A DNA stretch of 64,000 nucleotides, from NCBI GenBank assembly GCA_041666485.1, contig JBAYGW010000003.1:16415-80414 (forward strand), written 5' to 3'. Below, piece after piece: positions 6,131 to 60,212 of this stretch (its first letter is position 1; each line of letters starts with the position of its first letter). The translations under genes were made by a program, and so were the position numbers. Under the pieces are notes generated by a model that was given only the letters and a program-made list of their open reading frames with translations, did no database searches and had not been told where the DNA came from. This DNA comes from Patescibacteria group bacterium. GTDB lineage: Bacteria; Patescibacteriota; Patescibacteriia; UM-FILTER-42-10.

Positions 6131-6412
6131 TTAGAGAATTGCGTCTTTTGCTGCTTTGGCGACTCTGAACTTCAGCACTGTTTTGGCTTTGATCTGAATC
6201 TGTTCGCCCGTGGCTGGGTTTCGGCCCATGCGAGCTTCACGGTGCTTTTTGATCATCTTTCCCAAACCCGGGAGAGTGATTTCACCGCTTGATTTACATT
6301 CTTTGTAAACCAATTCGTTTAGGTTTTCCATGAAGGAAACAACCTCTTTTTTTTGAAGACCGGTTTTTTCAACCAGCGCTCCAATGAATTGAGACTTGGT
6401 CATTGATGCCAT
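6131..6412 (-). CDS. hup: DNA-binding protein HU
   Basis: 93 aa; [19 protein letters not shown] arm motif. Confidence 0.88.
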
Positions 6413-6670
6413 AGTATTCTCTTTTCTTACTTAATTAGTTATTCACATGTTAATGATTACATGCGTAGTATATACTATTTTGCAATATTTGCATAGATTC
6501 CCCTTTGTTTATAAGTATTTTTTACATACGAAGATATTCGGATCGCAATATTAATTTATAAAAAATGCATAATTATTGGCTAATATAAGCCATTTTCTAT
6601 TACTAAATAAAATGTCGCAAAAGCAACAAACTAATCAGATAAAAACTATTATATCGCCTGATAAAATGGT

Positions 6671-8161
6671 ATGATTGTTATTATGAAAAGACAATCCGGA
6701 ATATTATTACACATCACATCACTGCCCAGTCCGTATGGCATTGGTGATTTGGGAGAAGAAGCATTTAGATTTATTGATTTCTTAAGCAAGTCCGGACAGA
6801 GTATTTGGCAAATTCTTCCATTAACCATACCGGACTCTATCGGTTCACCATACGCGTCTTCATCTGCGTTTGCCGGAAACTGGCTACTAATTAGTCCTGA
6901 TGAATTATTAAAAGCCGGATTGCTGCACAAAAAGTCACTTCCCAAAACAAAGCGAGTCACAGCGATCAAATATTCAAAAGTATTCCAAGAGCGACGAAAA
7001 CTCGTTGAAAAATCATATGAGTATTTCCGCAAACATGCTTCACGTGAACAGAGTAACAGCTTTAATCATTTTATCCAATATCATTCAAAATGGCTCAACG
7101 ATTTCGGGCTGTTTATGGCGCTTAAAGATCACTTCAAGGGTGCGCGATGGTTTAATTGGCCTGAGGATATTGCCAACAGAGAAGAACAAGCCATCAAATA
7201 CTGGCAAAAAAAACTTGATCGCCAAATAAAAGTATATCAATACGGACAATGGATATTTTTTTCTCAGTATGCGAAAATTAAAAAATACGCGAATAAAAAA
7301 GGTATCCGCATTTTTGGCGATATTCCATTCTTTATTATTCACGACAGTGTAAATGTTTGGGTTGATCGGGATTTGTTTTTGCTGGACGATAAATACCAAC
7401 CCCTGGCCAAATCGGGTGTGCCACCGGATTATTTCAGCAAACGTGGACAGTTGTGGGGTGACCCGCAGTACAACTGGGAAAAAATGAAGAAAAATAATTT
7501 CCGTTGGTTTATCAGAAGAATAAAAAAAGCGGAAAACTTTTATGATGATGTTCGTTTAGACCATTTTAGAGGCTATTCAGCAGTATGGCATGTTGATCCA
7601 AAATCCAAAACATCTAAAAATGGCAAATGGGTCCCTGTACCCGGAATTGAAATCTTCAGAGAAGTAAAAAGCAAATTCAAAAATCTTTCTATCATTGCGG
7701 AAGATCTTGGATATATAACTCACGATGTAGTTGAATTGAAAAGGCATTATAAATTTCCGGGTATGCGCGTAATGCAGTTTGGTTTTAGTGGAAAACAGAA
7801 TAATTTTCATCTACCCACGAATTTTTCAACCGATTGCGTCGCTTATACCGGCACTCATGATAACGACACAACCTATGGCTGGATTACGAAATCCGGTAAA
7901 ACGTCGCAAAAGAAATTTGCGCTAAAATATGCGAAAACTGACAAAAAGCATTTTGCCTGGAAGCTTATTGAAATAGGTATGCGCTCAAGAGCCTGTTGGT
8001 TCGTCTTCCCTATTCAGGACGCTCTAAATCTCGGATCAGAGGCCCGCATGAACAAACCGTCAACCAAAAAGAAAAACTGGCAATGGCGTATGAAAAAAAA
8101 CGCATTATCGGACGAATTGGCAATTAAGATAAACAATCTTACCAGATCTGCCAGAAGATAA
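6671..8161 (+). CDS. malQ: 4-alpha-glucanotransferase (amylomaltase, GH77)
   Basis: SGILLHITSLPSPYGIGDLG signature; length ~496 aa. Confidence 0.9.
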   Translation: MIVIMKRQSGILLHITSLPSPYGIGDLGEEAFRFIDFLSKSGQSIWQILPLTIPDSIGSPYASSSAFAGNWLLISPDELLKAGLLHKKSLPKTKRVTAIKYSKVFQERRKLVEKSYEYFRKHASREQSNSFNHFIQYHSKWLNDFGLFMALKDHFKGARWFNWPEDIANREEQAIKYWQKKLDRQIKVYQYGQWIFFSQYAKIKKYANKKGIRIFGDIPFFIIHDSVNVWVDRDLFLLDDKYQPLAKSGVPPDYFSKRGQLWGDPQYNWEKMKKNNFRWFIRRIKKAENFYDDVRLDHFRGYSAVWHVDPKSKTSKNGKWVPVPGIEIFREVKSKFKNLSIIAEDLGYITHDVVELKRHYKFPGMRVMQFGFSGKQNNFHLPTNFSTDCVAYTGTHDNDTTYGWITKSGKTSQKKFALKYAKTDKKHFAWKLIEIGMRSRACWFVFPIQDALNLGSEARMNKPSTKKKNWQWRMKKNALSDELAIKINNLTRSARR

Positions 8162-8321
8162 TAATTCTAAAAACGTTCCGGCTTGAAATAAGCGCCGGGG
8201 CGTTTTTGATTATTCCAGAATCAGATTTCCGACCATGCCCATTTGCCGGTGATTTTGTATACCGCAATAATATTCAAAAATTCCGGTTTTATCCGCTATA
8301 AACTCCACTTAATATTAATAA

Positions 8322-9956: not shown

Positions 9957-10307
9957 TTAATGAATATGTTGATCTAAATGATTATCCAGCATTTCAACCT
10001 GTTCTTTGTCACTGATCTCAAGCATATAGCAAACGCACTTGCCCATTTTATACTTAGTTACAATCCGGGAGCGCTCTAGCATACTTAGCTGGTGCGACAC
10101 TGCGCTGATACTGATACCGAGCACAGCAGCGATATCTGAAACACAGATCTCTTCATAATGTTTTAATAACAGCAATATTTTTATCCTGGTCGGATCAGAC
10201 AAAACATTGCATAGATCACTTTGGATTTTTATGTGTTTACCGTTTCTTTTCAGCCAATTCTGATTTTTTAATATTTGCTTTTGCGTTAACATACTACGTT
10301 TTATCAT
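9957..10307 (-). CDS. ArsR/SmtB family transcriptional regulator
   Basis: wHTH segment ISISAVSHQLSMLERSRIV. Confidence 0.7.
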   Translation of the reverse strand: MIKRSMLTQKQILKNQNWLKRNGKHIKIQSDLCNVLSDPTRIKILLLLKHYEEICVSDIAAVLGISISAVSHQLSMLERSRIVTKYKMGKCVCYMLEISDKEQVEMLDNHLDQHIH

Positions 10308-10439: not shown

Positions 10440-10660
10440 ATGTAGGTGGGAGGACCGCCGTACCAAAAAGCAAGCAGTAATGCTACCCGCTGGGTGACAT
10501 TGACTGACGGGATTCGTCTCGTCCGTGGGCAGATGTTGCCCTCTGGGATGCTAAAGTGCGCGTCCTCCCACCCCACTTTCTTCTACAAATTGCTTTGTGC
10601 GGACGCTTAAGTCCGTTTGTGATAGTCACCCCACAACCCGATCCTACAGGGAGGTACGCC
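10440..10660 (+). other. GC-rich highly structured non-coding segment (candidate leader/riboswitch-like RNA) upstream of GC-rich ORF
   Basis: 11-13 bp outer stem GGTGGGAGGAC…GTCCTCCCACC enclosing several short hairpins incl. AGCA-GUAA-UGCU (GNRA loop). Confidence 0.3.
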
Positions 10661-10760
10661 AAATGTACTCGTGGAGTTACGCACGCCACGGGTTCGGTTG
10701 ACCTGCGATCTTCTCCGTCTGAGTAGTCAATGCCCACGACTCAAAATGAGGAGATCTCGC

Positions 10761-11126
10761 ATGTGCGACAAGACCCAATGGAACGCGGGGCACGTCCTCG
10801 TCGTCCAGACCGTGTTCCCGACCGACAGCGAATCCCCCGGCGGTTTCTCGCGCAGCGTCATGTTGTGCACCTGTGGGAGCTGCCTGAGCTCCAACAACCC
10901 GATGACGCCCGCAGGGCCCCTGCACAGCTACCTGAAACGGTGCTTTGAGCAGGACGCTGCTGATGCGGTGGCGGGGGGCCTTGAGCCGCCCGTCAACCTC
11001 CTGAGCATGCCGAAGCTTGACCCGCGCACCGGCGCCGAGAAGCCGACCAAGAAGCAGGCAGCCATGCTGATCAAGCAGATCGGTCCGGACGCCTTCGCTT
11101 CCGACATCGTCGCGGCCTACGCCTAG
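10761..11126 (+). CDS. hypothetical Cys-containing protein in GC-rich island
   Basis: AGGAG RBS 7 nt upstream of ATG; strong GC3 bias; followed by clean terminator. Confidence 0.45.
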   Translation: MCDKTQWNAGHVLVVQTVFPTDSESPGGFSRSVMLCTCGSCLSSNNPMTPAGPLHSYLKRCFEQDAADAVAGGLEPPVNLLSMPKLDPRTGAEKPTKKQAAMLIKQIGPDAFASDIVAAYA

Positions 11127-11158
11127 CGTAGGAGAAGAAGTACATCGTTGAAGGACAT

Positions 11159-11192
11159 CGGGCGAATCCACTGGATTCGCCCATTTTTTTAT
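11159..11192 (+). terminator. rho-independent terminator
   Basis: GGGCGAATCCA-C-TGGATTCGCCC followed by TTTTTTT. Confidence 0.75.
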
Positions 11193-11276
11193 TATGAATA
11201 TTGACAGAAGAAGTGGAATACAATACCATTGTTAACGCCCGCTGATTGTAAGACATCCTTCATGGAGGAGGTGGAC

Positions 11277-11573
11277 ATGTCCCAAAGTCGGCTGGTGATG
11301 TTCTTAATGCTCTTTCTCGGACTGACTCTCTCTCCCCTGTTTCTTGTCGTTGCGGCGGTTATGTTCCTTGCTCCCTCGGAGCCGAAGCTCATCCCCCGGG
11401 ATGATGAAGGGAGACGTTGCTGTCCCGTCTGCCACTCCAGACACTATCTCATCTTCCCGACTCGGCAGAAGAGCTACTTCGGCCATTCCTGGATTTCAGC
11501 ATTTTGCAGAAACCAAATGGAATACCGCTACCAGGACTGCACAATGAGCTGGAAAGAATCCGGGGACGGCTAA
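11277..11573 (+). CDS. hypothetical membrane-anchored Cys-rich small protein
   Basis: GGAGGAGG RBS; N-terminal TM helix then CCPVCH…C…C. Confidence 0.4.
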   Translation: MSQSRLVMFLMLFLGLTLSPLFLVVAAVMFLAPSEPKLIPRDDEGRRCCPVCHSRHYLIFPTRQKSYFGHSWISAFCRNQMEYRYQDCTMSWKESGDG

Positions 11574-11623
11574 ACCGCGTTGATGTTCTATCAGCGCTTT
11601 TTTTATATATTTATTTGACGTTA

Positions 11624-11959
11624 CTATCTGAAGATTTTAGACAGAAACCAGTTTACAATAGCCAGTACAATACCAAACAGCAATGCCCACCAAAAGCTTG
11701 CTATGGAAAATCCCGGAACAATTAACGCCATCAGCATAACCAATAATGCGTTAATCACCAGCGTAAACAAGCCAAGCGTCAGAATATTGATCGGCAGAGT
11801 AAAAATTACTAAAACAGGTTTGATAAATATATTAATCAGACCCAATACCAACGCCCCGACAAAAGCGACAAAAAAACCATCAACCGCTACGCCCGGTAGC
11901 AGATAGGCTGTGATCAGGATTGCGACCGTTGAAATTAGCCATTTAATAAGGATTTTCAT
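11624..11959 (-). CDS. DUF360 / holin-family-4-like small membrane protein
   Basis: 111 aa, 3-4 TM, LPGVAVDGFFVAFVGALVLGLIN pattern. Confidence 0.5.
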   Translation of the reverse strand: MKILIKWLISTVAILITAYLLPGVAVDGFFVAFVGALVLGLINIFIKPVLVIFTLPINILTLGLFTLVINALLVMLMALIVPGFSIASFWWALLFGIVLAIVNWFLSKIFR

Positions 11960-12156
11960 ATTGTTTTATTTAATGATTATGAAATCTTAGCTCTCTCTCC
12001 ATCAACCCAAAATAGTTGTTCATTATTAACAAAAGTAGGTATAATTAATGTACAAATATATTTTAGCACAATTCGCATAAAATACTCTATATTGCTGAAA
12101 TACGACATATATTCGTGTTGAAACGGGTTAAGTGAAATTCTAAATCTATTTTACAT

Positions 12157-25937: not shown

Positions 25938-26408
25938 CTATGTCCTGTCCAAAATAATTTTTATATCCTCTGATGCCTTCGGTAAAAAACGCGATTGGAG
26001 ATAATGGCAAGTGATTTCCTCATCCAGATCCTGGTTGATGGCACGATTACCCAGACGATGTACGCCGTCCACCACCAAATATATTTCTTTCTCCGGATAA
26101 TATAGAACCAATATATCCCCCGCCGGCACGTCATCGTAATCATAAAAACTTTTGAAGTGGTCTTCATTAACCTTGGTCTGTGCCAGTGCATAAACATCCT
26201 TCAGCCTGACCGGTAAGTACTCATCATCTTTGCCCGCCTCTTCAAAAGCGTTAGTAATAATTCCGCACTTCTGGTATCGTGGCAAATAGTACTCCATAAT
26301 GTCGGATACTTTCTTTTTTTCTGAAAATTCCCGCTTGCCGAAAAACAACCAGGTCTTTTTTATCCGTACACGGATGTCTTTGCTGTATTTTTCCAGAAAG
26401 TCTGACAT
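25938..26408 (-). CDS. ParB/Srx-superfamily (DGxHR motif) protein
   Basis: LVVDGVHRLGN resembles DGQHR/ParB-N motif. Confidence 0.35.
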   Translation of the reverse strand: MSDFLEKYSKDIRVRIKKTWLFFGKREFSEKKKVSDIMEYYLPRYQKCGIITNAFEEAGKDDEYLPVRLKDVYALAQTKVNEDHFKSFYDYDDVPAGDILVLYYPEKEIYLVVDGVHRLGNRAINQDLDEEITCHYLQSRFLPKASEDIKIILDRT

Positions 26409-26537
26409 GCAATAAGTATAGCAATTCCCCGGGTAAAAACAATTCTGGCTTAGATTTTAAAGACCATCTTTGTGTGTTATGCTAGAGGGGTGTAAGGGTG
26501 TAATAGCATTAATTTAAGTAAATCAGAGCAAAAAACC

Positions 26538-27527
26538 ATGAATCTGGATAAGATCTATACAATACTGGCAGACCAGCCGAAATACCGGATAGAACAGGCT
26601 AACGAAGCCATTTTTAAACTACTCATAAACAATTGGGATGGGGCGACAAACTTCCCGAAGGAAATCAGAGAAAAACTGAACCGAGAGTGCCCGCTGGAAA
26701 TAAAAGGTGAACTTTTTGCCTCCAAAGACAATAAAACCAGCAAAGCGCTGATTACACTGGAAGACGGCCAGCAGATTGAAACTGTTCTACTGATTCACAA
26801 AGACGGTCGGCATACAGTATGTGTTTCCACTCAAGCCGGTTGTCCGATGGGGTGCACTTTCTGTGCCACCGGAAAGCTAGGACTCAAAAGAAATCTGAAG
26901 GCGGAAGAAATATTGGCACAGGTACTTTTTTTCTCCAGGATTTTGAAACCGAAGAATGAACGCGTGTCCAACGTAGTTTTCATGGGTATGGGCGAACCGT
27001 TCCTGAATTATGACAATACACTTTCGGCAATCAACTATTTGAATAAAGACTTAGGTATCGGTGCCCGCCGTATCTCCATATCCACCTGCGGAGTAATCCC
27101 GGGGATAGAAAAATTAGCAAAAGAAAAATTACAGCTAAACCTTGCCGTATCGTTGCACGCGCCCAATCAGGAACTGCGTAATAAACTGATGCCGGTCAGC
27201 AAGCATGTTGCTTTAGAAAAACTGCTTTCAGCCGTGGACGACTATATTGCCAAAACCGGCAGACGGGTTATGTTTGAATATTTGATGATCAAGGGTGTAA
27301 ATGATAAAATTGAGTACGCAAAGCAACTGGCCGTGCTGATGGATAAACCTCTTCACATGGTAAACCTGATCGCCTACAACCCTACGGACGTTTTCAAACC
27401 TTCGGACCGGAAAACAATAGAAGCATTCAAAGAAGTTTTGGAAAAAGCGGGTGTTACCGTTACCCAGCGCTACAGTTTCGGTCAGGATATCAACGCTGCC
27501 TGTGGACAGTTGGCTAATAAAAAGTAA
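26538..27527 (+). CDS. rlmN: 23S rRNA/tRNA A2503-C2 methyltransferase (radical SAM)
   Basis: CPMGCTFCATG radical-SAM cluster motif, RlmN-like flanks. Confidence 0.88.
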   Translation: MNLDKIYTILADQPKYRIEQANEAIFKLLINNWDGATNFPKEIREKLNRECPLEIKGELFASKDNKTSKALITLEDGQQIETVLLIHKDGRHTVCVSTQAGCPMGCTFCATGKLGLKRNLKAEEILAQVLFFSRILKPKNERVSNVVFMGMGEPFLNYDNTLSAINYLNKDLGIGARRISISTCGVIPGIEKLAKEKLQLNLAVSLHAPNQELRNKLMPVSKHVALEKLLSAVDDYIAKTGRRVMFEYLMIKGVNDKIEYAKQLAVLMDKPLHMVNLIAYNPTDVFKPSDRKTIEAFKEVLEKAGVTVTQRYSFGQDINAACGQLANKK

Positions 27528-27645
27528 CTCAAGAGAATGATTAATATCTTGAATAAATATTTATTCACATGACTAATTCCATATTTTGTCTAAATTGGGT
27601 AAAATGTAACTATTGGAAAATATATATAATTAATTATCTAATAAA

Positions 27646-28602
27646 ATGATTAAAGAACCAACTCCAGGATTGGAGCAATCAAGAGAATTAATAGAAGAAC
27701 AAGGCCACAACACCAGTGTTCATTTTACATTTGTCCGTCATTCGCAGAAATCATCAGGTCAAGTTTTTGCAGAAGGTGGCAAGGGAATATCGCGATCAAG
27801 TATTTCCGAAGGAGGAAGACAGCGGGCAGAAGTTTATGGACGAGATCAAATGTCCAGTCGAAGAATAAATAAAGCTTATGCTACTAAAGTAGATAGAACA
27901 AAAGAAACATTAAATTATGCTTTTCAGGCAGCAGAAATAAATCCAGATATTCTACAAAAATCAGATAGCTCACAATCTTTCTTCTCACTGCCCGCTTTAT
28001 CGGGCAGTACAGAATTTAATAGACGTTATGATGCTATTATGCTTCCCGAAAGACAAAAATTTATTGACGGGCATTATCCGGGGAGGCAATTTAGTGAACT
28101 GACGCCAGATGAGCAAGAGGTAGCCGCAGAATACGCCGAGGAACCGGCCCTAGAATGGTATCTTTCATATAATAATGAACGACCCGATGAAGAAACACCA
28201 AGCCCGCGTGAACAGGCCGCCTCTGTTGCCTTCAAACTAAATCGACTCGTTAATTTAACGGATTTCATGCCAAATGGCAAAGAATTGGACCTTGTCAGTT
28301 CAGGACATAAAACATCTACTGAAGCATTGCTAAAATATATTATAGAACGACAAGAAAATGGCGAAGTAGTAGTGGGATTTGAAAGCTTGGAACAAATAGG
28401 TGGAAGTTTAAAGATTCTAGATAGCTGGGATTTATATGTTCAAAATGATGAAGGTGGAGAAAAGCATATCATGATGGTGTTGAGACGGGAAAATGGTGAA
28501 ACGCAGGAATATGGACTAAACAGTTCTATTCTAAATGAATTGGCAAAAGAATACATTGAGGCCAGCAGTTTGAAGCCTAAGAAAATAGACTCATTACAAT
28601 AA
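27646..28602 (+). CDS. hypothetical protein, possible histidine-phosphatase (PGAM-like) fold
   Basis: FTFVRHSQ…ISEGGRQRAEVYG and SSGHKTSTEALL resemble RHG…/second His region; weak. Confidence 0.4.
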   Translation: MIKEPTPGLEQSRELIEEQGHNTSVHFTFVRHSQKSSGQVFAEGGKGISRSSISEGGRQRAEVYGRDQMSSRRINKAYATKVDRTKETLNYAFQAAEINPDILQKSDSSQSFFSLPALSGSTEFNRRYDAIMLPERQKFIDGHYPGRQFSELTPDEQEVAAEYAEEPALEWYLSYNNERPDEETPSPREQAASVAFKLNRLVNLTDFMPNGKELDLVSSGHKTSTEALLKYIIERQENGEVVVGFESLEQIGGSLKILDSWDLYVQNDEGGEKHIMMVLRRENGETQEYGLNSSILNELAKEYIEASSLKPKKIDSLQ

Positions 28603-28606
28603 AGCT

Positions 28607-28936
28607 ATGGCAAAAATATTACTTACCGGCATAGGCGCCAGCCCAGGATATGTAGAAGGCACTGCACGACTATTTCATTCTGGCGATGAACTATTATCAT
28701 TTCATGATGGTGATATTTTAGTAACTATAATAACCGATCCAACCATGGTGACCGCGATGGTAAAAGCATCGGCAATAATTACAGATATCGGTGGTATTAC
28801 ATCCCACCCCGCAATCCTGAGTCGTGAAATGGGTATACCTTGTATTGTTAATACGAAGGAGGCAACAAAGATAATAAGAGATGGCATGCATATTAGTGTT
28901 GATGGTCAAAAAGGAGAAATTTATGTCCTGGATTAA
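28607..28936 (+). CDS. standalone PEP-utilising-enzyme mobile (phosphohistidine swivel) domain protein
   Basis: DIGGITSHPAILSREMGIPCIV matches GGxTSHAAIxARExGIPxVVG. Confidence 0.72.
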   Translation: MAKILLTGIGASPGYVEGTARLFHSGDELLSFHDGDILVTIITDPTMVTAMVKASAIITDIGGITSHPAILSREMGIPCIVNTKEATKIIRDGMHISVDGQKGEIYVLD

Positions 28937-29990
28937 TGAGTTTACAAAATCAGCATCAAGTTTGTTTAAAGGTCAGATACTAGCAGGTTTCCAACCGCTT
29001 GATTTTAGTCACTTTCTTCCACTTTGGTATGCTCTATGGATTACTAATATTGCGCATACAATTAAAATACTGGACTTAGAATCAAAACATTTTGATGAAA
29101 TCAATGAAATACTTCCACCACCTTCCAACATGAGGGCAATTCTGGTAAAACTTATTCCCGCTTATTATGCTAATCCCACAAAAAATAAGAAGGATTACAA
29201 CATAGTAGCAAATTTTTTTGCGCGAATGCTTAAAGAATGCTGCCCAAATGATCCATTTGCTCTTAAATCAAATACCATTCATACAAGCACGGAAATTATT
29301 TCCCTTGTATCCAATATAAACTGGAATAATGCCGATATTCAAAGTGCGCGAAAAGTTGGCCAACTTATCACTGCAACCGGGTCACTTGTTCATGGTTTAT
29401 ATAACGACCTTGTAACGGATCTCGGCTGGGAAGTATATGGTCCATATATTTCAACAATAAAGCAAACATTACTAATACGTCTTTTCCCCAATCTCCAACC
29501 AAAAGAGCTATGGCCAGAAAAGTATTTAGCCAGCATGAAAGAAATTACTATCTATGCCACTTATGAAGATGTTGAATGGAATATTTCTTTTGTTGGCTGT
29601 CATACAATTTCTAATGGAAAAAGCCCAGTTGAAGGCATGACAAAATACGCAATTTACGGGGATGGAAAAAAATTAAATCTAATCAATACAGAAAATCTTA
29701 TTGATGAATTATCAAAGAAAGCAACAGATATTTATAGCAACATAAATAGTATGTCCTCTGAGAACCTTAAATTATTGGTTATGAGGCAAGAATGCTATCA
29801 ACTTAAATTATTGTTTGATGAAGCGGGAATCGATTGGCAGCCGACCGCTGAAATGATAGAAGTAGTTAAAAGCAAGCAAATTTTGCATGGAGTATTTCCG
29901 CGTGATAAATTTATTGAATCAACAGAGGAATTTAAGAAAATATTTGGCATTGATGTTTTTGAAAAAGAAATTCTGAATATTTTAAATTAA
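28921..29990 (+). CDS. hypothetical protein (356 aa), translationally coupled to swivel-domain gene
   Basis: AGGAG RBS; 16-nt overlap with upstream stop. Confidence 0.45.
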
Positions 29991-30001
29991 TTTATAAACA
30001 T

Positions 30002-30427
30002 ATGACCAAAGCACAAATCAAGGGACATCAAGTTGTTTGTTCCGCGTTTATAGAAAGAAATAAAAGGTTTTTGATTGTCATGGATCCCAAATTCAAAGTT
30101 TGGCGGGTTCCCGGAGGCAGACCGGAGCACGGTGAAAAGCTTGAAGATACTTTGATACGAGAAATGCAGGAAGAAACAGGTATAACATTTTCCGACCCCA
30201 AATTCATCGGCTTTGGCCAGGATCAGCAGTTTAAAGTGGATGATAAACTGGAAACATCGCGTTTGATTATGTATTTTCATGTGCATACCGACCAGGAACC
30301 GGTGCTTGACCCGAACGAAGCAGAACAGCACAAATGGGTTACGCTTGACGAACTCAAGGAAATAGATTTAGATAACAAGGAAGGGGCGCTTACCGATTTT
30401 TTTAATCGTAATCCGAATTTTAAATAA
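30002..30427 (+). CDS. NUDIX hydrolase
   Basis: Nudix box GGRPEHGEKLEDTLIREMQEETGI. Confidence 0.8.
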   Translation: MTKAQIKGHQVVCSAFIERNKRFLIVMDPKFKVWRVPGGRPEHGEKLEDTLIREMQEETGITFSDPKFIGFGQDQQFKVDDKLETSRLIMYFHVHTDQEPVLDPNEAEQHKWVTLDELKEIDLDNKEGALTDFFNRNPNFK

Positions 30428-30434
30428 AACATTT

Positions 30435-30812
30435 ATGAATGAAAATGTCATAGTCAAAGAGTCAAGTATCAATAATAAAGGCGTTTTTGCCACACGCGAT
30501 TTTAAAAAGGGTGAAGTAGTGCTCCCCTGGCAGACAAATACTATCCTAACCATGGAAGAAGTTAAAAAATTGCCGGCATCAGAAAGAAACTATATCGCCA
30601 ACTATGCGGGGGGTAAATATCTGCATCAACAAGAGCCGGAAAGATATGTTAACCACTCCTGCGATCCGAATACAGAAACTGGTGATGATTGTGACGTAGC
30701 GATCAGAGATATTAAATCTGGTGAAGAAATTACTTCCGATTATTCCAAGGCAAAGTTTAATATGCACTTTGTATGCAACTGCGGGAGTAAAAATTGCCGC
30801 AAGTATATTTAA
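30435..30812 (+). CDS. SET-domain protein-lysine methyltransferase
   Basis: GVFATRDFKKGEVV, RYVNHSCDPNTE, GEEITSDY, post-SET CNCGSKNCR. Confidence 0.75.
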   Translation: MNENVIVKESSINNKGVFATRDFKKGEVVLPWQTNTILTMEEVKKLPASERNYIANYAGGKYLHQQEPERYVNHSCDPNTETGDDCDVAIRDIKSGEEITSDYSKAKFNMHFVCNCGSKNCRKYI

Positions 30813-30838
30813 GTATATATACTTTAAATGATTGAATC

Positions 30839-31297
30839 ATGTCGGATCAACGAAAAGTAATCCCGGGAGTACATCTCATTTTCCAAAAATATAATAATGA
30901 CATCGGCGAGAACGAGTATCTGCTCCACAAGCGCATGAATACCAACTTTTTTGACAAACACTTTTCCGTTCCCGGCGGGCATATTGATGATTATGAAACC
31001 CCTACCGACTGCGTGGTACGCGAAGGAAAAGAAGAACTTGGTGTGGATATTGATCCAAAATACATAAAATTTGCTAATGTACTTTACAGGATTAAAAAAT
31101 CCGATCATGAAGTGCGCATTGACTTTTGCTACATCATTACCAAATGGAAAGGCATATTGAAGGCCAATGAACAGCATAAACACTCTGAGCCGGCCTGGTA
31201 TCCACTCAGCAAATTCCCTACACCCGTAGTTCCTTATGTATTGCAGGCAATACAAGATATTGAAAGTGGAATTGCATACACAAAGACAGATATTTAG
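30839..31297 (+). CDS. NUDIX hydrolase
   Basis: PGGHIDDYETPTDCVVREGKEELGV. Confidence 0.75.
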   Translation: MSDQRKVIPGVHLIFQKYNNDIGENEYLLHKRMNTNFFDKHFSVPGGHIDDYETPTDCVVREGKEELGVDIDPKYIKFANVLYRIKKSDHEVRIDFCYIITKWKGILKANEQHKHSEPAWYPLSKFPTPVVPYVLQAIQDIESGIAYTKTDI

Positions 31298-31351
31298 TGG
31301 GGAATAAGAATCATAATAATAACCTGGGTGCAAGAATTTAATTCAATATAA

Positions 31352-31789
31352 ATGTTTACAATCGGAACATTCGGCATAATCAAAGATGAAAATGAACGGG
31401 TATTACTCTGTCACCGCCGGGATTATGATTTTTGGAATCTGCCTGGAGGCGGAGTAAAAGAAAATGAAACTCCCTGGGACGCTGTAATTCGGGAAATAAG
31501 GGAAGAAACGGGACTGGAAGCTCGGATCACTCACCTCTCGGGCGTGTACAGCAAGCCGGATAAAAATGAAATTGTGTTTTCTTTTGTTTGCGAAATAGCG
31601 GGCGGGGAAACTACTTTAACTGACGAGGCGGACAAAATAGCATATTTTGAAGTTGACCAGATTCCTAAAAATACTTCCCCGAAACAAGTGGAACGGATCA
31701 AAGATTATTTTGCTGATCCATCCAAAACCCACTACAAGGCGCAAACCGGCGCGTCATCAATTGATCTGATCAAAGCGGGAAGACTTTAA
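31352..31789 (+). CDS. NUDIX hydrolase
   Basis: LPGGGVKENETPWDAVIREIREETGLE. Confidence 0.8.
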   Translation: MFTIGTFGIIKDENERVLLCHRRDYDFWNLPGGGVKENETPWDAVIREIREETGLEARITHLSGVYSKPDKNEIVFSFVCEIAGGETTLTDEADKIAYFEVDQIPKNTSPKQVERIKDYFADPSKTHYKAQTGASSIDLIKAGRL

Positions 31790-31854
31790 AATTCAGAATA
31801 AATTTAAAACAGTTTATGCAATAAACTGTTCTTTGTTAACAAAAAAACTTAACA

Positions 31855-34912: not shown

Positions 34913-36415
34913 TTAGGTAATTGTAAAAATATTGATTTTTTCAATCGCTTTCTTTGCCAGTTCAATTCTTTCCCTGCGATTCGCGTAAAAAGTGAACAGT
35001 TTACTACCCTTTTTAACTTCCTGTCCAACCCTTTTGTGGAGGTAAATGCCGGCCAATTTTTCTGAAGGCGCACCTAGTGTTCTCGCAATTTCGTCAATTG
35101 CTTTATTATCTACTGCGGTTATTTTACCTGACTTTGCGGAAAGTACACGGTAATACTCACCGCCTAAGACCACTGCGTCGGAATCAATTGTAGAATTACC
35201 ACCCTGTTCCTTGATCACCACCTGCATTTTTTTCCACGCCTTACCTGATACCAGAATTTCTTCCGCAACTGATTTTCCCTTACCGCGCGCCACCTGCCCC
35301 GATATTTCCAGAAGTTTTCCCGCCAAAACCAGTGCTTTATCTTCTAAATCTTTCGGCCTGTTACTTTTTTGCTGCAATACCCGGAGAACATCGCGTGATT
35401 CCAAGGCCGGTCCAACCCCTCTGCCGACCGGTTCATTGGCAAAAATTTTTTCAACATGTATTTTAATCCCAAAACGCTTGCCAAGATACATAAACTTTTT
35501 TTCAATCTCATTCGCGGTCTTCATATCCGGAATTTTTGAGGTGATTCCGACCGGCATATCAATCACCAGATACTTGATACCCATGGCAACTTTTTTCGCC
35601 ATAATACTTACCACCATTTTATCAAACGGTTCCAAGGAGAGTGGTTTTGTCACCTGAATAATCAAATCATCCGCCGGAGCAATATTTAAACCACCGCCCC
35701 AGATCATACATACTTTGTTTTTCATCACCATTTGTTTGATTCTGGTCATGGAAAATCCGACCGGAGCCAATACTTCCATAGTATCCGCCGTACCCGACGG
35801 TGAAGTGATCGCCCGGGAGGAGGTTTTTGGAATATATAAACCAAAGGCTGCAACAATCGGAACAACAATCATAGTTGTCCTATTGCCGGCCAAACCGCCG
35901 ACGGAATGTTTATCAACTACAATTTTATTTCCGGAAAATCTCAACTGCTCGCCGGTTTCCGCAATTGATTTTGTAAGATAATACAGCTCCAGTGGAGTAT
36001 AAGGCCTTGCAAAACTAGACGCGACAAAATATGATGTTTCCACCGGTCCGAGTCTGCGGCTGACAATATCTGCTATGATTGAATGAATTTCCTCATAACT
36101 TAAAACACCGCCCTTAATTTTCTTATTAATTGCTTTTACTGATTCCGGACGTTCAACGATTGAAACCTCAATGATTTGATCTTTCTTCATCGGGTACTTC
36201 GCCCAGATCTCTTCAAAAAAACCGATCTCCCCCGGCTTTATTTCATTTTCCGCCAGGTTTACAGTAGCAAATATTCTTTTACGGTTATGCCAGGACAAAC
36301 CGATATGGTCATTAGCATGAATACCAAAATTGAGGGCTTCTTTTTCATTTAAAAGCACCTTCGGCATCTCGCCGGTTTCAATATCAATTTTTTTTGCCCT
36401 TAAATAAAATGCCAT
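34913..36415 (-). CDS. AMP phosphorylase (thymidine-phosphorylase family, archaeal DeoA-type)
   Basis: Near full-length similarity to Thermococcus AMPpase incl. HSVGGLAGNRTTMIVVPIVAA, PKTSSRAITSPSGTADTMEV. Confidence 0.85.
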   Translation of the reverse strand: MAFYLRAKKIDIETGEMPKVLLNEKEALNFGIHANDHIGLSWHNRKRIFATVNLAENEIKPGEIGFFEEIWAKYPMKKDQIIEVSIVERPESVKAINKKIKGGVLSYEEIHSIIADIVSRRLGPVETSYFVASSFARPYTPLELYYLTKSIAETGEQLRFSGNKIVVDKHSVGGLAGNRTTMIVVPIVAAFGLYIPKTSSRAITSPSGTADTMEVLAPVGFSMTRIKQMVMKNKVCMIWGGGLNIAPADDLIIQVTKPLSLEPFDKMVVSIMAKKVAMGIKYLVIDMPVGITSKIPDMKTANEIEKKFMYLGKRFGIKIHVEKIFANEPVGRGVGPALESRDVLRVLQQKSNRPKDLEDKALVLAGKLLEISGQVARGKGKSVAEEILVSGKAWKKMQVVIKEQGGNSTIDSDAVVLGGEYYRVLSAKSGKITAVDNKAIDEIARTLGAPSEKLAGIYLHKRVGQEVKKGSKLFTFYANRRERIELAKKAIEKINIFTIT

Positions 36416-36480
36416 GATTAGTAATTCGTAATTAGCAATTGGTAATTAGTAATTAGCAACGTGTAATTCGCTGTATAATG
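36416..36480 (-). promoter_or_regulatory. tandem AATTAC-repeat array in leader of AMP phosphorylase gene
   Basis: cgAATTACacgttgctAATTACtAATTACcaattgctAATTACgAATTACtaatcATG (read toward gene); near-identical array before guaB. Confidence 0.35.
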
Positions 36481-36516
36481 CCGTATGTACAGGTCTGATA
36501 TTAAGATGTAAAAAAA

Positions 36517-37800
36517 TTACTTATCCCCATCCTTCCAATGTCTGAGCGCAACGGCTAACTCTCCGTGGTCTTTGGCATACTCATCCAGATCAATCCCCGC
36601 AAGCGTCGCGTCTAATGCCTGTTTAACGGCTGTCGCTCCGGCAAATGTTCCTTCCGGATGACCATGGATACCCCCGCCAAAATTCAGAATTACATCTTTG
36701 CCGAATATTTTATAAAGCGAAGGTATTAAATTGGGATACAACCCGCCTGATGCGATCGGGAATGTTGATTTAATATTAAACCACTTACTGCGCAGAAAAT
36801 CATCTATTTCAACTACATCACTTTTTCCACCCTCCATTTTCCCCACAACCGTGCCGGTGTGCAGCTGATCAATACCTGCCAGACGCGCCAATTTTGACAG
36901 CACTAGCATACTCATTCCATGTTTTTGGTTCTTAGTGAACATAGAATGCCCAGCTCTGTGACCGTGAATTATAAGACCTAAATCCCGTTTGCGTAACATT
37001 TGCACATTATCAAGTCCTACGGAAACCATGTCAATCATTACCACTTCACCGCCGAGGCTTTTGACCAGCTGCGCTCTTTTGATCATTTCATCCGGTTGTG
37101 CTGTTACATTAAACACGCACAATTTTTTGCAGCCTGTTTCTTTTTCCGCTTTATCCCTCATTTTAAGAGTAAGCCGGACTCGCTGATCAAATCGGCTGAA
37201 AGAAAGGTCGGTTAAATTTTCATCATCTTTGACCAGATCAATTCCACCGATAAAGACCTGGTAAGACAGTGTGGCATGCTGCAGAGCGGACAAGCCCAGC
37301 TTTGGTTTCAGAATTGATCCCAGTATGGGCCGGTCATAAATTCCCATAATGCGCCTGATCCCTTTTATGCCGAAACGCGGGCCCTGAAAACTTTCAACAT
37401 ATTCTTTCGGAAAGTCTACATCCACTAATCTGAGATTCCTTATGATCTTCATACTAAAAACATTACCCGCCACACCGGATAAAAATTGCGGGATGCTCCC
37501 CTTTTCAAAAAGCGCCAAGGGATAGGCAACTTTGAATGTATGGGCTTTTTTATCAATATCATATGCTTTCGCGCTCAGCTTCGTGAATGTTGCTTTGGAT
37601 AATGTGGCAAGATCCGTCCAGGTTCCAATAGAAGATTCCGCCGCCACTCCGCCCGCCGCATCGTTAAAATCAACATTGGTATCCATATAGAATGAAGCGA
37701 CAAGTTCTGTTTTCTTCGGCTGATAGCTTTTTTTTACAAATTTTTGGTAAAATTTATTCATATTATAGATTCTTGAAAATCCATGGATAATGCTTTTCAA
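36517..37800 (-). CDS. rbcL: ribulose-1,5-bisphosphate carboxylase large subunit, form II/III
   Basis: KPKLG carbamylation site, GGIDLVKDDEN, IHGHRAGHSMF, GGGIHGHP; alternative start at 37761. Confidence 0.88.
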   Translation of the reverse strand: MKSIIHGFSRIYNMNKFYQKFVKKSYQPKKTELVASFYMDTNVDFNDAAGGVAAESSIGTWTDLATLSKATFTKLSAKAYDIDKKAHTFKVAYPLALFEKGSIPQFLSGVAGNVFSMKIIRNLRLVDVDFPKEYVESFQGPRFGIKGIRRIMGIYDRPILGSILKPKLGLSALQHATLSYQVFIGGIDLVKDDENLTDLSFSRFDQRVRLTLKMRDKAEKETGCKKLCVFNVTAQPDEMIKRAQLVKSLGGEVVMIDMVSVGLDNVQMLRKRDLGLIIHGHRAGHSMFTKNQKHGMSMLVLSKLARLAGIDQLHTGTVVGKMEGGKSDVVEIDDFLRSKWFNIKSTFPIASGGLYPNLIPSLYKIFGKDVILNFGGGIHGHPEGTFAGATAVKQALDATLAGIDLDEYAKDHGELAVALRHWKDGDK

Positions 37801-38719
37801 CTAAATAAGCAACATCACGTGGCTTAATAATACCAAATTCACAAATTATTCCTTTGATGAATTTAGATGGAATGCGGTCAAAAGCGAAATTGATTATTTT
37901 TAATCCTTTCGGACCGTTCGGCCAGATTTCTTTGCGATCCCGCAATTCAATGCCAACATATTTGCTGATAAATGTTTCCGGATCGGTTTTTAAAAGTGAA
38001 GCGGCGACATAAACCGGAATTTTTTCGTGGTTAGCAACCTGGGCGATTCCGTAGCTACCGACTTTGTTGATCACTGAGCCGCCGGATGTAACCGAGTCTG
38101 CACCCAAAAAAGCAATATCCACCATCACTTCCCGGCCACTGGTTCTGCTGATCAGAAAAGCGGCAGCTGAATCAGCCACCATTGTGACGTCAATCTTTCG
38201 CTTTAATAGATTCTTAGCTGTTATTCGCCCCTGGAAAAGCGGGCGGGTTTCTGTACAAAAAACATGCGGCATCTTTGAATGTTTATTAGCCTCAGTAATA
38301 ATATGCTCCACAGTTGAAGAATGGCAGTGCGTGAATACTTTCATATCTTGCTTAATCAGTTTTGCGCCGGCTACGGCAATTTTTTGATCATGATATTTCA
38401 GCAAAACTAAAAAAAGATGGCAAGCTTTTTTTAGCAACTTCGCCAACTCAGGCACGGATAAACCTTCTTTATTATTCTCTAAATAATGTAAAACGAATTG
38501 GACTGAATTACGGGACAGCGGTTCGGTCGGCCTTGCTTCCGCCAAGGCTTTGCCACTTTTACGAATAGCAGAAAGAAACTGGCTTTTATTTTTTTTTAGC
38601 AATTGATTACTTTCCAACTGCAACGCGTCCAAAATTACTTTGGTTATCTGCGTTGCACCCTGTATTTCTAAAGATGCTATTTTTGTTACTGTTTTTTGTA
38701 CTGCGCTATTCATAAACAC
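37763..38719 (-). CDS. ribose-1,5-bisphosphate isomerase (eIF-2B alpha/beta/delta family)
   Basis: e2b2-family core …VTMVADSAAAFL…FLGADSVTSGGSVINKVGSYG. Confidence 0.72.
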   Translation of the reverse strand: MFMNSAVQKTVTKIASLEIQGATQITKVILDALQLESNQLLKKNKSQFLSAIRKSGKALAEARPTEPLSRNSVQFVLHYLENNKEGLSVPELAKLLKKACHLFLVLLKYHDQKIAVAGAKLIKQDMKVFTHCHSSTVEHIITEANKHSKMPHVFCTETRPLFQGRITAKNLLKRKIDVTMVADSAAAFLISRTSGREVMVDIAFLGADSVTSGGSVINKVGSYGIAQVANHEKIPVYVAASLLKTDPETFISKYVGIELRDRKEIWPNGPKGLKIINFAFDRIPSKFIKGIICEFGIIKPRDVAYLVEKHYPWIFKNL

Positions 38720-47614: not shown

Positions 47615-48250
47615 CTATTTTTTCTTTTTTGCCTTCGGTTTAGCTTTTACCGCCTTTATTACCTTCTTCTTAACTTCTGCTTTTACAGAAACCTTCTTCT
47701 TTATTTCGGGCTTAGAAACAGGTTTTACTTTTTCTTGTAATACTTCTGGCTCTGCTGCCGATAACTGCCGCAATATTTTATCTAATTTTTCATTAATTGT
47801 TTTTAACTGGCCGTCAAATCGCCCGCTATTGGCATCGCTTGGTTTTCGGTCAGCACTTCTCGGATCCTTCCCAAAACAGCTGGAACACAATACGGGCTTT
47901 TCTCCGGTAGGACGAAAAGGAACTTCACAGCTCTGCCCGCACTTGGAACAGGTAGCACTGAACATTTTTTTCTCATAAAAATTCGGCTTGCCGAAATCCC
48001 TGCCAAAAGAACGACCGGAACTTGATTTATCCTTTGCTTTGAAGCAGTTACTGCAATAAACCGGCTTGTTTCCCGTCGGTTTAAACGGAACTTCACAGCT
48101 TTGCCCGCATTCCGAACAGACAGCTTTATGCATTACATGATGGTCCGAGTCACCTCCCCGGTTATAACCGCCGCTCATAGATTCTCTGCGGTCAAAACTA
48201 GGACCGTTTTTTCGGTCAAATGATTTTCCGTTTCTGTTAAAGTTTTTCAT
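47615..48250 (-). CDS. tandem zinc-ribbon protein with RGG-like N-terminus and lysine-rich (H1-like) C-terminal tail
   Basis: Two copies of CxxCGQSCEVPF(K/R)PTGxKPVxCSxCF; tail KKKVSVKAEVKKKVIKAVKAKPKAKKKK. Confidence 0.6.
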   Translation of the reverse strand: MKNFNRNGKSFDRKNGPSFDRRESMSGGYNRGGDSDHHVMHKAVCSECGQSCEVPFKPTGNKPVYCSNCFKAKDKSSSGRSFGRDFGKPNFYEKKMFSATCSKCGQSCEVPFRPTGEKPVLCSSCFGKDPRSADRKPSDANSGRFDGQLKTINEKLDKILRQLSAAEPEVLQEKVKPVSKPEIKKKVSVKAEVKKKVIKAVKAKPKAKKKK

Positions 48251-55653: not shown

Positions 55654-55810
55654 ACCGTCTTATTGTACCAAATATCAATGTTTCTGGCGACTTGTCATTA
55701 CAGTCACGTAGCAACCCTGACTTGCCAGAGTAAATGAAATATGGTAAAAACAAAACTGTGCCCATCTTCAGGGCGCAAATGACCAAAACCCGTTTTTGGG
55801 AGGTATTGGT

Positions 55811-56923
55811 ATGGACCAACGATTTGTCGATCTGGCGAGAGTCATGGTCGGCCATTCCACAAGGGTCTCAAAGGACGATATCGTCATCGTCAAGAGCACG
55901 GAGGTAGTGCCGCCCGACATGATCTTCGCGGTGATCCAGACCGTGCGCGAAGCGGGGGGCTCCGTGATCCCCTGGCGCTACGATCCGCGCATTGACTTCG
56001 AGGCATTCAGGGGTGGCACCGCTCACCAGCTGCGTGCCTGGGGCGCCGGCCAGTTTACCCAACTGGCTGCCGCCAACTGCTTCATTGAGTTCCGGCCGTT
56101 CAGTAACCAGCTCGACGGCAACGACGTGCCGGCAGCGGACATGCAGCGCCACGGCGAGGTGTTCGTTCCGCTGACGGTTGAACAGCGCGTGGAACGCACC
56201 CGCTGGGTGCTGACCCGCTGGCCGACGCCGGCCAACGCCCAGTTGGCCGGGATGTCCACGACGCAGTTCGAAGAGTTCTTCTTCAAGGCATGCCTCGCCG
56301 ACTACGGCGCCATGGCCAAGGCCGTGAAGCCGCTCGTCGCCCTGATGGAGCGGACCGACCAGGTCCAGATCCAAGGGCCGGGCGACACCGATCTCACTTT
56401 CAGCATCAAGGGAATTCCGATCATCGCCTGTACCGGATCGCACAACATCCCCGACGGCGAAGTGTTCACGGCGCCGGTTCGCGATTCCATGAACGGCGTG
56501 ATCGCCTACAACACCCCCACGGTCAACTCCCGCGGCCAGCGGTTCACCAATCTCCGCTTCGTGGTCAAGGCGGGCAAGATCGTGGAGGCGACCTGCGAGA
56601 CGGGTGACCAGACGGCGCTGGACGCCTTCCTGGACACCGACGAGGGTGCCCGCTACTTCGGCGAATTCGCCCTCGGCATCAACAACTTCGTCACGGGTGT
56701 GATCGGCGAAACGCTGTTCGACGAGAAGGTCGGTGGAAGCCTCCACTTGACGCCCGGCCGGTGCTATGAGCAAGCGCCGAACGGGAACCAGTCGGCCAAC
56801 CACTGGGACATCGTCTGCGATCAGCGCGGGGCTTCCGGTGGTGGGGAGATCTACTTCGACGGCAAGCTGGTCCGCAGCAAAGGGCTTTTCATCCCGAAGA
56901 GCCTCCACGCGCTCAATCCCTGA
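55811..56923 (+). CDS. M29-family aminopeptidase (aminopeptidase T/AmpS-like), GC-rich
   Basis: NIPDGEVFTAP, LDTDEGARYFGEFALG match Thermus aminopeptidase T; GGGAGG RBS; antisense 364-aa ORF has no motifs. Confidence 0.8.
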   Translation: MDQRFVDLARVMVGHSTRVSKDDIVIVKSTEVVPPDMIFAVIQTVREAGGSVIPWRYDPRIDFEAFRGGTAHQLRAWGAGQFTQLAAANCFIEFRPFSNQLDGNDVPAADMQRHGEVFVPLTVEQRVERTRWVLTRWPTPANAQLAGMSTTQFEEFFFKACLADYGAMAKAVKPLVALMERTDQVQIQGPGDTDLTFSIKGIPIIACTGSHNIPDGEVFTAPVRDSMNGVIAYNTPTVNSRGQRFTNLRFVVKAGKIVEATCETGDQTALDAFLDTDEGARYFGEFALGINNFVTGVIGETLFDEKVGGSLHLTPGRCYEQAPNGNQSANHWDIVCDQRGASGGGEIYFDGKLVRSKGLFIPKSLHALNP

Positions 56924-59861: not shown

Positions 59862-60141
59862 AAAGTAATTGTAACGCGCATATATTCTAGGTCAAGGTGC
59901 CTGTATAACTACTGCCCGTTCGAATCCCAATAATTACAAATGTCTTAATTCATTATTTATCCTGAGCACAACAGGAGCGCACAAGGCATAGATTTGACAA
60001 GTCTAGCTAGTCCTCGCCGAGACAGAAAAAAGTGGGGCCCCCGACCCGCTTTTGGCGGGTTGGGGAAAGGGGCACAGACCCGCAACCTAAAACAACCAAG
60101 CTTGCTTGGTTGTGACAGGTGAAGGGTCTGATGACCCGTGG

Positions 60142-60212
60142 CTGGGGAGGAGGGATTCGAACCCCCGGTGACGGGACCAGAACCCGTTGCCTTACCGCTT
60201 GGCTACTCCCCA
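60142..60212 (-). tRNA. tRNA-Gln (anticodon CUG)
   Basis: Hand-folded cloverleaf: U1-A72 acceptor TGGGGAG/CTCCCCA, D-loop AGCGGTAA, anticodon stem ACGGG/CCCGT with loop TTCTGGT, T-loop TTCGAAT; close to E. coli tRNA-Gln. Confidence 0.85.

Follow-up and report, generated by a model that had tools for sequence, protein, structure and literature searches.

A 125-amino-acid SET-domain protein of a Patescibacteria group bacterium and its relatives in bacterial and archaeal-labelled genomes

The stretch analysed here (hereafter the window) comprises 64,000 nucleotides of contig JBAYGW010000003.1 from the genome of a Patescibacteria group bacterium and carries at 30435-30812 a gene for a protein of 125 amino acids. 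This gene encodes a genuine SET-domain protein, whose catalytic core is intact and which carries a post-SET zinc motif. An original prediction, made from the DNA sequence, had described a SET protein in a bacterial genome, which is borne out by the assignment to the Patescibacteria, i.e., to the candidate phyla radiation (CPR). The identical protein is public in NCBI as MFA6524879.1 with an annotation that already reads SET, so the identification itself is not new, and the gene, annotated before, is an ordinary representative of a large family of known kind. The protein is probably a stand-alone, cytoplasmic methyltransferase dependent on S-adenosylmethionine (AdoMet), with a near-minimal SET and post-SET, that modifies a lysine on one or a few abundant endogenous proteins. 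The residual interest attaches to the target of a SET family that CPR bacteria have in common with archaea, and to a non-aromatic residue at the switch position of its active site.

Domain, motifs and fold of the SET protein

The gene and the motifs of its product were located as follows, with residues numbered on the 125-amino-acid protein.

30435-30812, + strand: SET and post-SET methyltransferase gene, ATG start, 125 amino acids and stop codon; identified by PF00856, by phmmer alignment with MLL1 and by an AlphaFold2 model searched with Foldseek
30480-30491, + strand: remnant of the N-terminal SET motif I, G16-V-F-A19 (GVF being G16 to F18), aligned to GRGLF of MLL1
30642-30671, + strand: motif III, RYVNHSCDPN, residues 70-79, aligned to RFINHSCEPN of MLL1
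[quoted passage not shown]
30774-30797, + strand: post-SET CxCx4C motif, CNCGSKNC, residues 114-121 (C114, C116, C121), aligned to CNCGAKKC of MLL1

The Pfam SET profile PF00856 matched residues 15-103 of the protein over profile positions 2-104 of 105, with an E value of 3.1e-16; it scored 60.2 bits, where the gathering cutoff is 22.4. It was the sole Pfam match of the protein at E <= 0.01. No NCBIfam model matched the protein, and it showed no N-terminal hydrophobic stretch, no signal peptide, no secretion motif and no additional domain. In a phmmer search against the PDB, the protein aligned end to end with the SET and post-SET of MLL1/KMT2A (E = 7e-10). RYVNHSCDPN was paired with RFINHSCEPN, EEITSDY with EELTYDY and CNCGSKNCRKYI with CNCGAKKCRKFL, and the motifs shared with MLL1 are NHSCxPN, EE(I/L)TxDY and CNCGxKxCRK. 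At the N-terminal GxG position, NKG stands opposite GRG of MLL1, and the second Gly (G16) alone is retained. The original prediction had claimed all SET hallmarks for the protein, and every motif quoted by it was recovered in its place. Neither an insignificant SET profile nor an alignment lacking the catalytic Tyr or Asn was encountered, given the PF00856 score and the aligned N73 and Y103.

Conservation was calculated over 245 non-identical relatives of the SET protein. N73, C76, C114, and C116 were conserved in 100%, H74, S75, and C121 in 99%, and Y103 in 98% of them, and in motif I the residues G16, F18, and A19 reached 98, 93, and 96%, respectively. The conservation of the catalytic and zinc residues at 98-100% indicates a working enzyme and not a decayed domain, and a pseudo-enzyme is ruled out by the same figures. 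With CxCx4C and the Cys of NHSC present and 99-100% conserved, the protein falls into the post-SET zinc subclass (MLL/SUV39/NSD-like), and C76 as the first ligand is predicted from the motifs to make up, together with C114, C116, and C121, a Zn(Cys)4 site. Motif IV follows the pattern ELx(F/Y)DY with its catalytic Tyr, in a variant that has Ser at the (F/Y) position. Aromatic residues at W32, Y53, Y62, and Y/F71 were conserved in 88, 80, 63, and 99%, respectively, and are candidates for lining the acceptor channel.

Position 101, the Phe/Tyr switch, is occupied by Ser in this protein and by Ser, Ala, Thr, and Gly in 54, 16, 11, and 7% of the family, respectively. The Phe/Tyr switch that limits the methylation state is the first Tyr of YDY (Y3942 in MLL1 and Y1052 in yeast Set1), and trimethylation was increased in the yeast Set1 mutants Y1052A/V (PMC3585878). 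At +2 from the catalytic Tyr103 the protein has Lys105, at a position that is variable across the family; the corresponding +2 residue of Set1, F1056, is part of the lining of the lysine channel (PMC3585878). By analogy with these enzymes, the SET family could have a roomier acceptor pocket, which might allow more methyl groups per acceptor or an acceptor of a slightly different kind, and the small residue at position 101 is predicted to leave room for di- or trimethylation.

The AlphaFold2 model of the protein, built on a 32-sequence alignment, reached a mean predicted local distance difference test score (pLDDT) of 87.6 and a predicted template modelling score (pTM) of 0.78. When this model was searched against the PDB with Foldseek, 349 chains were matched at E <= 1e-3, and the best 50 of the 349 were all SET lysine methyltransferases. 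The top matches were MLL3, MLL1, ASH1L, MLL4, NSD1/2, and SETD2, with a best E value of 5.6e-9 and query-normalised template modelling (TM) scores of 0.70-0.76. The all-beta SET fold is supported by superposition of the model on MLL1, MLL3, and ASH1L, and the pseudoknot is expected by homology. On the model, the protein is a trimmed Trithorax/ASH-like SET and post-SET.

The MLL (KMT2), ASH1, NSD, and SETD2 enzymes, which gave the best sequence and structure matches, share with the protein the order SET-N, SET-I, SET-C, and post-SET, and NHSCxPN, EExTxDY, and CxCx4C correspond residue by residue with MLL. The top Foldseek matches were 20-31% identical to the protein, and its identity to the MLL/ASH1L-type SETs as a class is no more than 22-31%. 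Compared to the catalytic domain of MLL1, the protein lacks about 17 residues, a loss distributed over the loops. Unlike MLL, it has no flanking domain or partner-binding region, it misses the first Gly of GxG, its switch residue is Ser (S/A/T/G in the family), and no aromatic residue stands at +2 from the catalytic Tyr. As the protein is prokaryotic, its substrate is not a eukaryotic histone. The best functional analogy is offered by Go1-SET of Methanosarcina mazei (AAM32541), the one characterised archaeal SET, which methylates the DNA-binding protein MC1-alpha (PMC3980110) and which resembles the present protein in being stand-alone and in its endogenous DNA-binding target, which is presumed here. 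When the SET of a Methanosarcinales-labelled contig, whose label may be unreliable, was used as a query, no named Methanosarcina protein was returned.

Chlorovirus vSET and other viral minimal SETs are similar in size (~116-130 amino acids) and have the same core fold, while their structural match is weaker than that of MLL/ASH1L (TM 0.52-0.63, 17-28% identity). The protein carries an invariant post-SET CxCx4C, which vSET presumably lacks, and it does not belong to the vSET type. A search of 2.9 million viral contigs brought up only nine distant relatives (29-36% identity), and together with the weaker viral structural matches this makes a viral origin unlikely. BurB of Burkholderia thailandensis is a SET enzyme of 172 amino acids that methylates free methionine as an S-methyltransferase (PMC12542666). 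It is likewise a small bacterial stand-alone SET, and it was matched by phmmer against the PDB at E = 1.6e-5, but the similarity is confined to residues 70-125 and is weaker than that to MLL. While BurB sits in a biosynthetic gene cluster, there is none at this SET locus.

Several bacterial SET effectors are larger, secreted, and aimed at host histones. The protein shares with them a bacterial SET domain, while it is of minimal size, carries no signal for secretion, and occurs in environmental CPR and archaeal genomes. The secreted SET effectors of bacteria, which are SET-domain lysine methyltransferases, include RomA/LegAS4 of Legionella, NUE of Chlamydia, BtSET of Burkholderia, and BaSET of Bacillus anthracis (PMC3980110). 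A protein of the RuBisCO large subunit methyltransferase (LSMT) type, with a split SET and a Rubis-subs-bind domain, was also considered and rejected, as the protein has 125 amino acids and SET is its sole Pfam match.

The enzyme would be close to the smallest complete SET, made up of SET-N, a short SET-I, SET-C, and post-SET. By homology with MLL-type SETs, AdoMet would dock on the G16 strand and on Asn73/His74 of NHSC, and the pseudoknot, to which Asn73/His74 would contribute, would place NHSC beside the EEITSDY strand. The substrate amine is expected to enter through a narrow channel on the opposite face and to be methylated beside the invariant Tyr103, and one zinc held by Cys76, Cys114, Cys116, and Cys121 would keep the post-SET lid shut over the cofactor. 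The acceptor would most likely be a lysine of one or a few abundant endogenous proteins, e.g., a nucleoid-associated, ribosomal, or translation protein, on which di- or trimethylation would be allowed by the small residue at position 101.

Size, distribution and tree of the family

In a word-indexed search, 1284 clusters at the 90% identity level were found at E <= 1e-3, and nearly all of the best 120 of the 1284 clusters had a length of 123-135 amino acids. An exhaustive search of 1.84 billion representatives returned 4477 of them at E <= 1e-3, 492 at 1e-10, and 10 at 1e-30. A species scan was performed with one genome per species over 185,579 species, and of the 600 candidate stretches that it gave, 558 proved to be relatives. 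Relatives of the SET protein thus occur in at least 558 species-level genomes. Such proteins had been expected to be sporadic in bacteria, which disagrees with these at least 558 genomes and with a survey in which SET proteins occurred in 39% of 105 bacterial species (PMC9018016).

Counts of taxa and loci given here and below rest on the best 80 species loci, which were grouped by the label of the metagenome-assembled genome (MAG); single loci are cited by L numbers. By this label, 24 loci belong to CPR bacteria, 35 to archaea, and 21 to other bacteria. The CPR carriers were Kerfeld-, Levy-, Magasanik-, Kaiser-, Nealson-, Nomura-, Moranii-, and Saccharibacteria, among others. The archaeal-labelled carriers were mostly DPANN (Woese-, Pace-, Micr-, Aenigm-, Nano-, and Iainarchaeota), and some were labelled plainly as "archaeon" or as Methanosarcinales. 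Pyrinomonadaceae/Acidobacteriota were prominent among the other bacterial carriers, and Verrucomicrobia occurred as well. In the survey mentioned above, archaeal SETs were confined to Euryarchaeota and one Asgard species (PMC9018016), so the abundance in DPANN-labelled genomes is under-reported in papers, though it is present in database annotations.

The mean pairwise identity of the SETs was 49% within CPR, 52% within archaea, and 49% between the two, and some cross-domain pairs reached 69%. In a crude neighbour-joining tree, the archaea/bacteria label required 10 Fitch steps compared to 24 with shuffled labels, figures that are to be read in light of the short alignment, the neighbour-joining method, and the accuracy of the MAG labels. 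The two domains are partly separated in this tree, with several apparent inter-domain transfers. The SETs of five loci (L012, L030, L086, L055, and L085), from MAGs titled 'uncultured Gammaproteobacteria' or 'Methanosarcinales', cluster with those of CPR/DPANN, a query with the SET of L085 gave no Methanosarcina relatives, and the taxonomic labels or the binning of these five may be wrong.

A uniform SET and post-SET family of ~125 amino acids is common in CPR and DPANN-labelled MAGs, which is a modest wider point. The substrate of the family would reveal the role of protein methylation in the smallest cellular genomes, and it would also tell whether prokaryotic SETs generally target nucleoid proteins.

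Gene neighbourhood and candidate acceptors

The genes next to SET are the following.

27646-29990, + strand: three upstream co-directional genes, for a 318-amino-acid unknown protein, a 109-amino-acid stand-alone PEP-utilizers mobile domain and a 369-amino-acid unknown protein, with gaps of 4, -56 and 11 nt
30002-30427, + strand: Nudix hydrolase A, 141 amino acids, PF00293 (E = 8.7e-19), with Nudix box; its stop lies 7 nt before the SET start
30839-31297, + strand: Nudix hydrolase B, 152 amino acids, PF00293 (E = 5.4e-15); 26 nt after SET
31352-31789, + strand: Nudix hydrolase C, 145 amino acids, PF00293 (E = 4.1e-22)

Eight co-directional genes lie at 26538-31789, with gaps of 118, 4, -56, 11, 7, 26, and 54 nt. 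The window contains three Nudix boxes in all, every one in a gene flanking SET, and Nudix A, B, and C are mutually just 29-42% identical around the box. No terminator-like site was found on the + strand at 26400-31800, in a promoter and terminator scan that was overall no better than that of shuffled sequence. Co-transcription of Nudix-SET-Nudix is plausible, and the upstream genes at 27646-29990 may share this transcript. The flanking Nudix genes, while probably co-transcribed with SET, would not be required to explain its function. The guanine-cytosine (GC) content around the SET gene is 0.39 and equals the window level, and the gene stands among housekeeping genes. A recent horizontal acquisition of SET is unlikely because the local GC content matches the window.

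The gene for the 369-amino-acid protein starts inside that for the PEP-utilizers mobile (swivel His) domain. No Pfam or PDB match was found for the 369-amino-acid protein, and the 318-amino-acid protein gave a faint His-phosphatase signal (E = 0.036). At L007, where SET is 62% identical, there is no Nudix neighbour and the same pair as upstream in the window, of a PEP-mobile domain and an unknown protein of ~360 amino acids, adjoins SET (6882-8268). Such a pair may be a split phosphotransfer enzyme.

The Nudix-SET-Nudix order was kept on the contigs with an identical SET protein. It was also kept, with Nudix B absent, in the relatives with 86% and 80% identical SETs (L004, L009). Nudix A is retained where SET is 80-100% identical, and L009 carries an 83% identical orthologue of Nudix C. 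At more distant loci, a Nudix gene occurred <= 1 kb from SET in 3 of 79 species, with a near/far density ratio of 2.9, an enrichment that is not significant (p = 0.14), and the Nudix neighbours in those other lineages were not orthologues of the Nudix proteins of the window. De novo clustering of the open reading frames <= 3 kb from SET at the 80 species loci gave antisense shadow reading frames of SET and scattered Nudix genes, and no other recurrent family. The contexts of SET elsewhere are diverse: it follows a pentapeptide-repeat protein, follows a cysteinyl-tRNA synthetase, or stands between archease and RtcB, the last being the case in the archaeal-labelled L071 (3399-5607). The embedding of SET among Nudix genes in the original prediction holds for this locus with its three flanking PF00293 genes, but it is specific to the lineage. 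The Nudix arrangement is local to this lineage and no feature of the family, and a conserved SET-Nudix operon was rejected on the counts given above.

AMP phosphorylase (Glycos_transf_3 and PYNP_C), the RuBisCO large subunit, and an IF-2B-family ribose-1,5-bisphosphate isomerase adjoin at 34913-38719 on the - strand, and this trio is the archaeal/CPR adenosine monophosphate (AMP) salvage module. Parts of the module also lie <= 6 kb from SET in L011 (Kerfeldbacteria) and in the archaeal-labelled L071 and L075.

HU and a lysine-tailed protein had been put forward as substrates, and their genes were located in the window.

6131-6412, - strand: HU gene, PF00216 (E = 3.4e-26), 24 kb from SET
47615-48250, - strand: double treble-clef zinc finger with a Lys-rich C-terminal tail, PF23477 twice (E = 2.9e-32), 17 kb from SET

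The presence of HU in the genome was confirmed by the PF00216 match, and a phmmer scan of the window with HU probes found this gene alone (no MC1 search was made). The second candidate had been described as an H1-like lysine-tailed zinc-ribbon protein. Its gene, zinc finger, and Lys tail are present, whereas the finger is a tandem treble clef and no linker-histone (H1 globular) domain was found in the protein, so the resemblance to H1 is limited to the composition of the tail. Among the other loci, 1 of 80 had an HU homologue and 2 of 80 had a homologue of the zinc-finger protein (zf_Tbcl_2) <= 6 kb from SET, whereas a neighbour rich in Lys stood <= 1.5 kb from it at 1 of 79 loci (L033). By a rough estimate with assumed gene copy numbers, these counts are about those expected by chance. 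None of the archaeal-labelled loci had an HU homologue in the scanned 6 kb around SET, a result that covers these flanks of the gene. Downstream of SET, the archaeal-labelled L033 carries at 6442-6882, after 64 nt, a protein with a membrane anchor, whose N-terminal tail is extremely rich in Lys, and the archaeal-labelled L085 carries at 7204-7860, after 823 nt, a double treble-clef zinc-finger protein.

By analogy with Go1-SET, an endogenous basic protein would be the most reasonable class of target (PMC3980110). A narrower version, in which SET methylates the cell's own nucleoid proteins, HU or the lysine-tailed zinc-finger protein, as a chromatin-like modification, is rather unlikely. The window encodes both candidates, Go1-SET acts on MC1-alpha, pathogen SETs act on histones and BaSET on H1 (PMC3980110), and the neighbours in L033 and L085 fit as well. 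However, HU and the lysine-tailed protein lie 24 and 17 kb from SET without linkage in the window, and as neither recurs beside SET elsewhere, the proposal of these substrates is a guess; the zinc-finger protein moreover has no H1 globular domain. The CPR-archaeal identity of the SETs equals that within CPR, and no HU stands near SET on the archaeal-labelled loci. DPANN archaea are for the most part not known to have HU, so a target specific to HU would be an odd fit for a SET common to CPR and archaeal-labelled contigs. SET might instead be an effector that is delivered by an episymbiotic CPR cell to modify proteins of its host cell, similar to those of Legionella, Chlamydia, and Burkholderia, but this is very improbable. 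CPR and DPANN organisms are largely episymbionts, and with the inter-domain transfers of the tree (10 Fitch steps) the gene looks mobile and accessory. The best-studied bacterial SETs are indeed host-directed effectors (PMC3980110). An effector role is nevertheless unlikely because the protein bears neither a signal peptide nor a secretion motif and consists of the one domain, because its gene has normal GC and stands among housekeeping genes, and because the family occurs in Acidobacteriota (Pyrinomonadaceae) and Verrucomicrobia, too. The Pyrinomonadaceae are free-living, and the uniform length and the 45-69% identity across lineages better suit a conserved intracellular role.

A service of SET to nucleotide metabolism is an improbable explanation, too. 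Here, SET would methylate a Nudix-processed small molecule or nucleotide-derived amine, or an enzyme of AMP salvage, i.e., the form III RuBisCO at 36517-37800, in the manner of plant RuBisCO LSMT, itself a SET enzyme. This is suggested by the co-directional array, which has 7, 26, and 54 nt between its genes and lacks a predicted terminator, by the position of all three Nudix boxes, and by AMP phosphorylase, RuBisCO, and the ribose-1,5-bisphosphate isomerase at 4-8 kb from SET. At least one gene of the AMP module stands <= 6 kb from SET in L011, L071, and L075, which are of different lineages, but these counts are small and in part due to shared ancestry. BurB is a precedent for the SET fold acting on a small molecule (PMC12542666), and the pocket may be altered, given a switch position without an aromatic residue, while BurB resembles the protein over the C-terminal half alone and less closely than MLL does. 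The low Nudix count (3 of 79 loci), the non-orthologous neighbours elsewhere, and the loss of Nudix B already in 80-86% identical relatives speak against it, as does the missing substrate-binding domain of LSMT. It is doubtful, in addition, that the CPR/archaea SET clade has an unconventional acceptor, either a universally conserved protein of both domains, e.g., a ribosomal or translation factor, or, as in BurB, a non-lysine or small-molecule acceptor, with a possible recruitment in this lineage to the Nudix and AMP-salvage neighbourhood, e.g., as a counterpart of plant RuBisCO lysine methylation.

Methylation of a lysine on abundant endogenous proteins remains the preferred reading, with the following points against it. 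The two lysine-channel aromatics of Set1/MLL are non-aromatic in this protein (Ser101 and Lys105), so the acceptor pocket may differ. As BurB methylates methionine and not a protein, a lysine acceptor is not guaranteed by the SET fold (PMC12542666). The tight Nudix gaps of 7 and 26 nt make a functional link in this lineage possible. Furthermore, the searched literature library gave no relevant paper that links the SET domain with Patescibacteria, CPR, or DPANN.

Other features of the window

A Peptidase_M29 gene at 55796-56923 on the + strand (Pfam E = 7.6e-40) alone makes up a sharp GC island, in which GC reaches 61-66% over ~1.2 kb compared to 33-44% on both sides and ~39% in the window. This island suggests either that the gene was recently gained by horizontal transfer, with a donor of high GC, or that the assembly is chimeric. 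GC is also raised to 0.48 at 10600-11960, where overlapping open reading frames without a Pfam match occur on both strands. This stretch adjoins a Phage_holin_4_2 gene (11624-11959, E = 1.2e-33) and an ArsR-type regulator (9957-10307). In a scan of the window with Rfam at the gathering threshold, no family besides tRNA was returned, and the single tRNA is Gln-CTG at 60139-60212 on the - strand.

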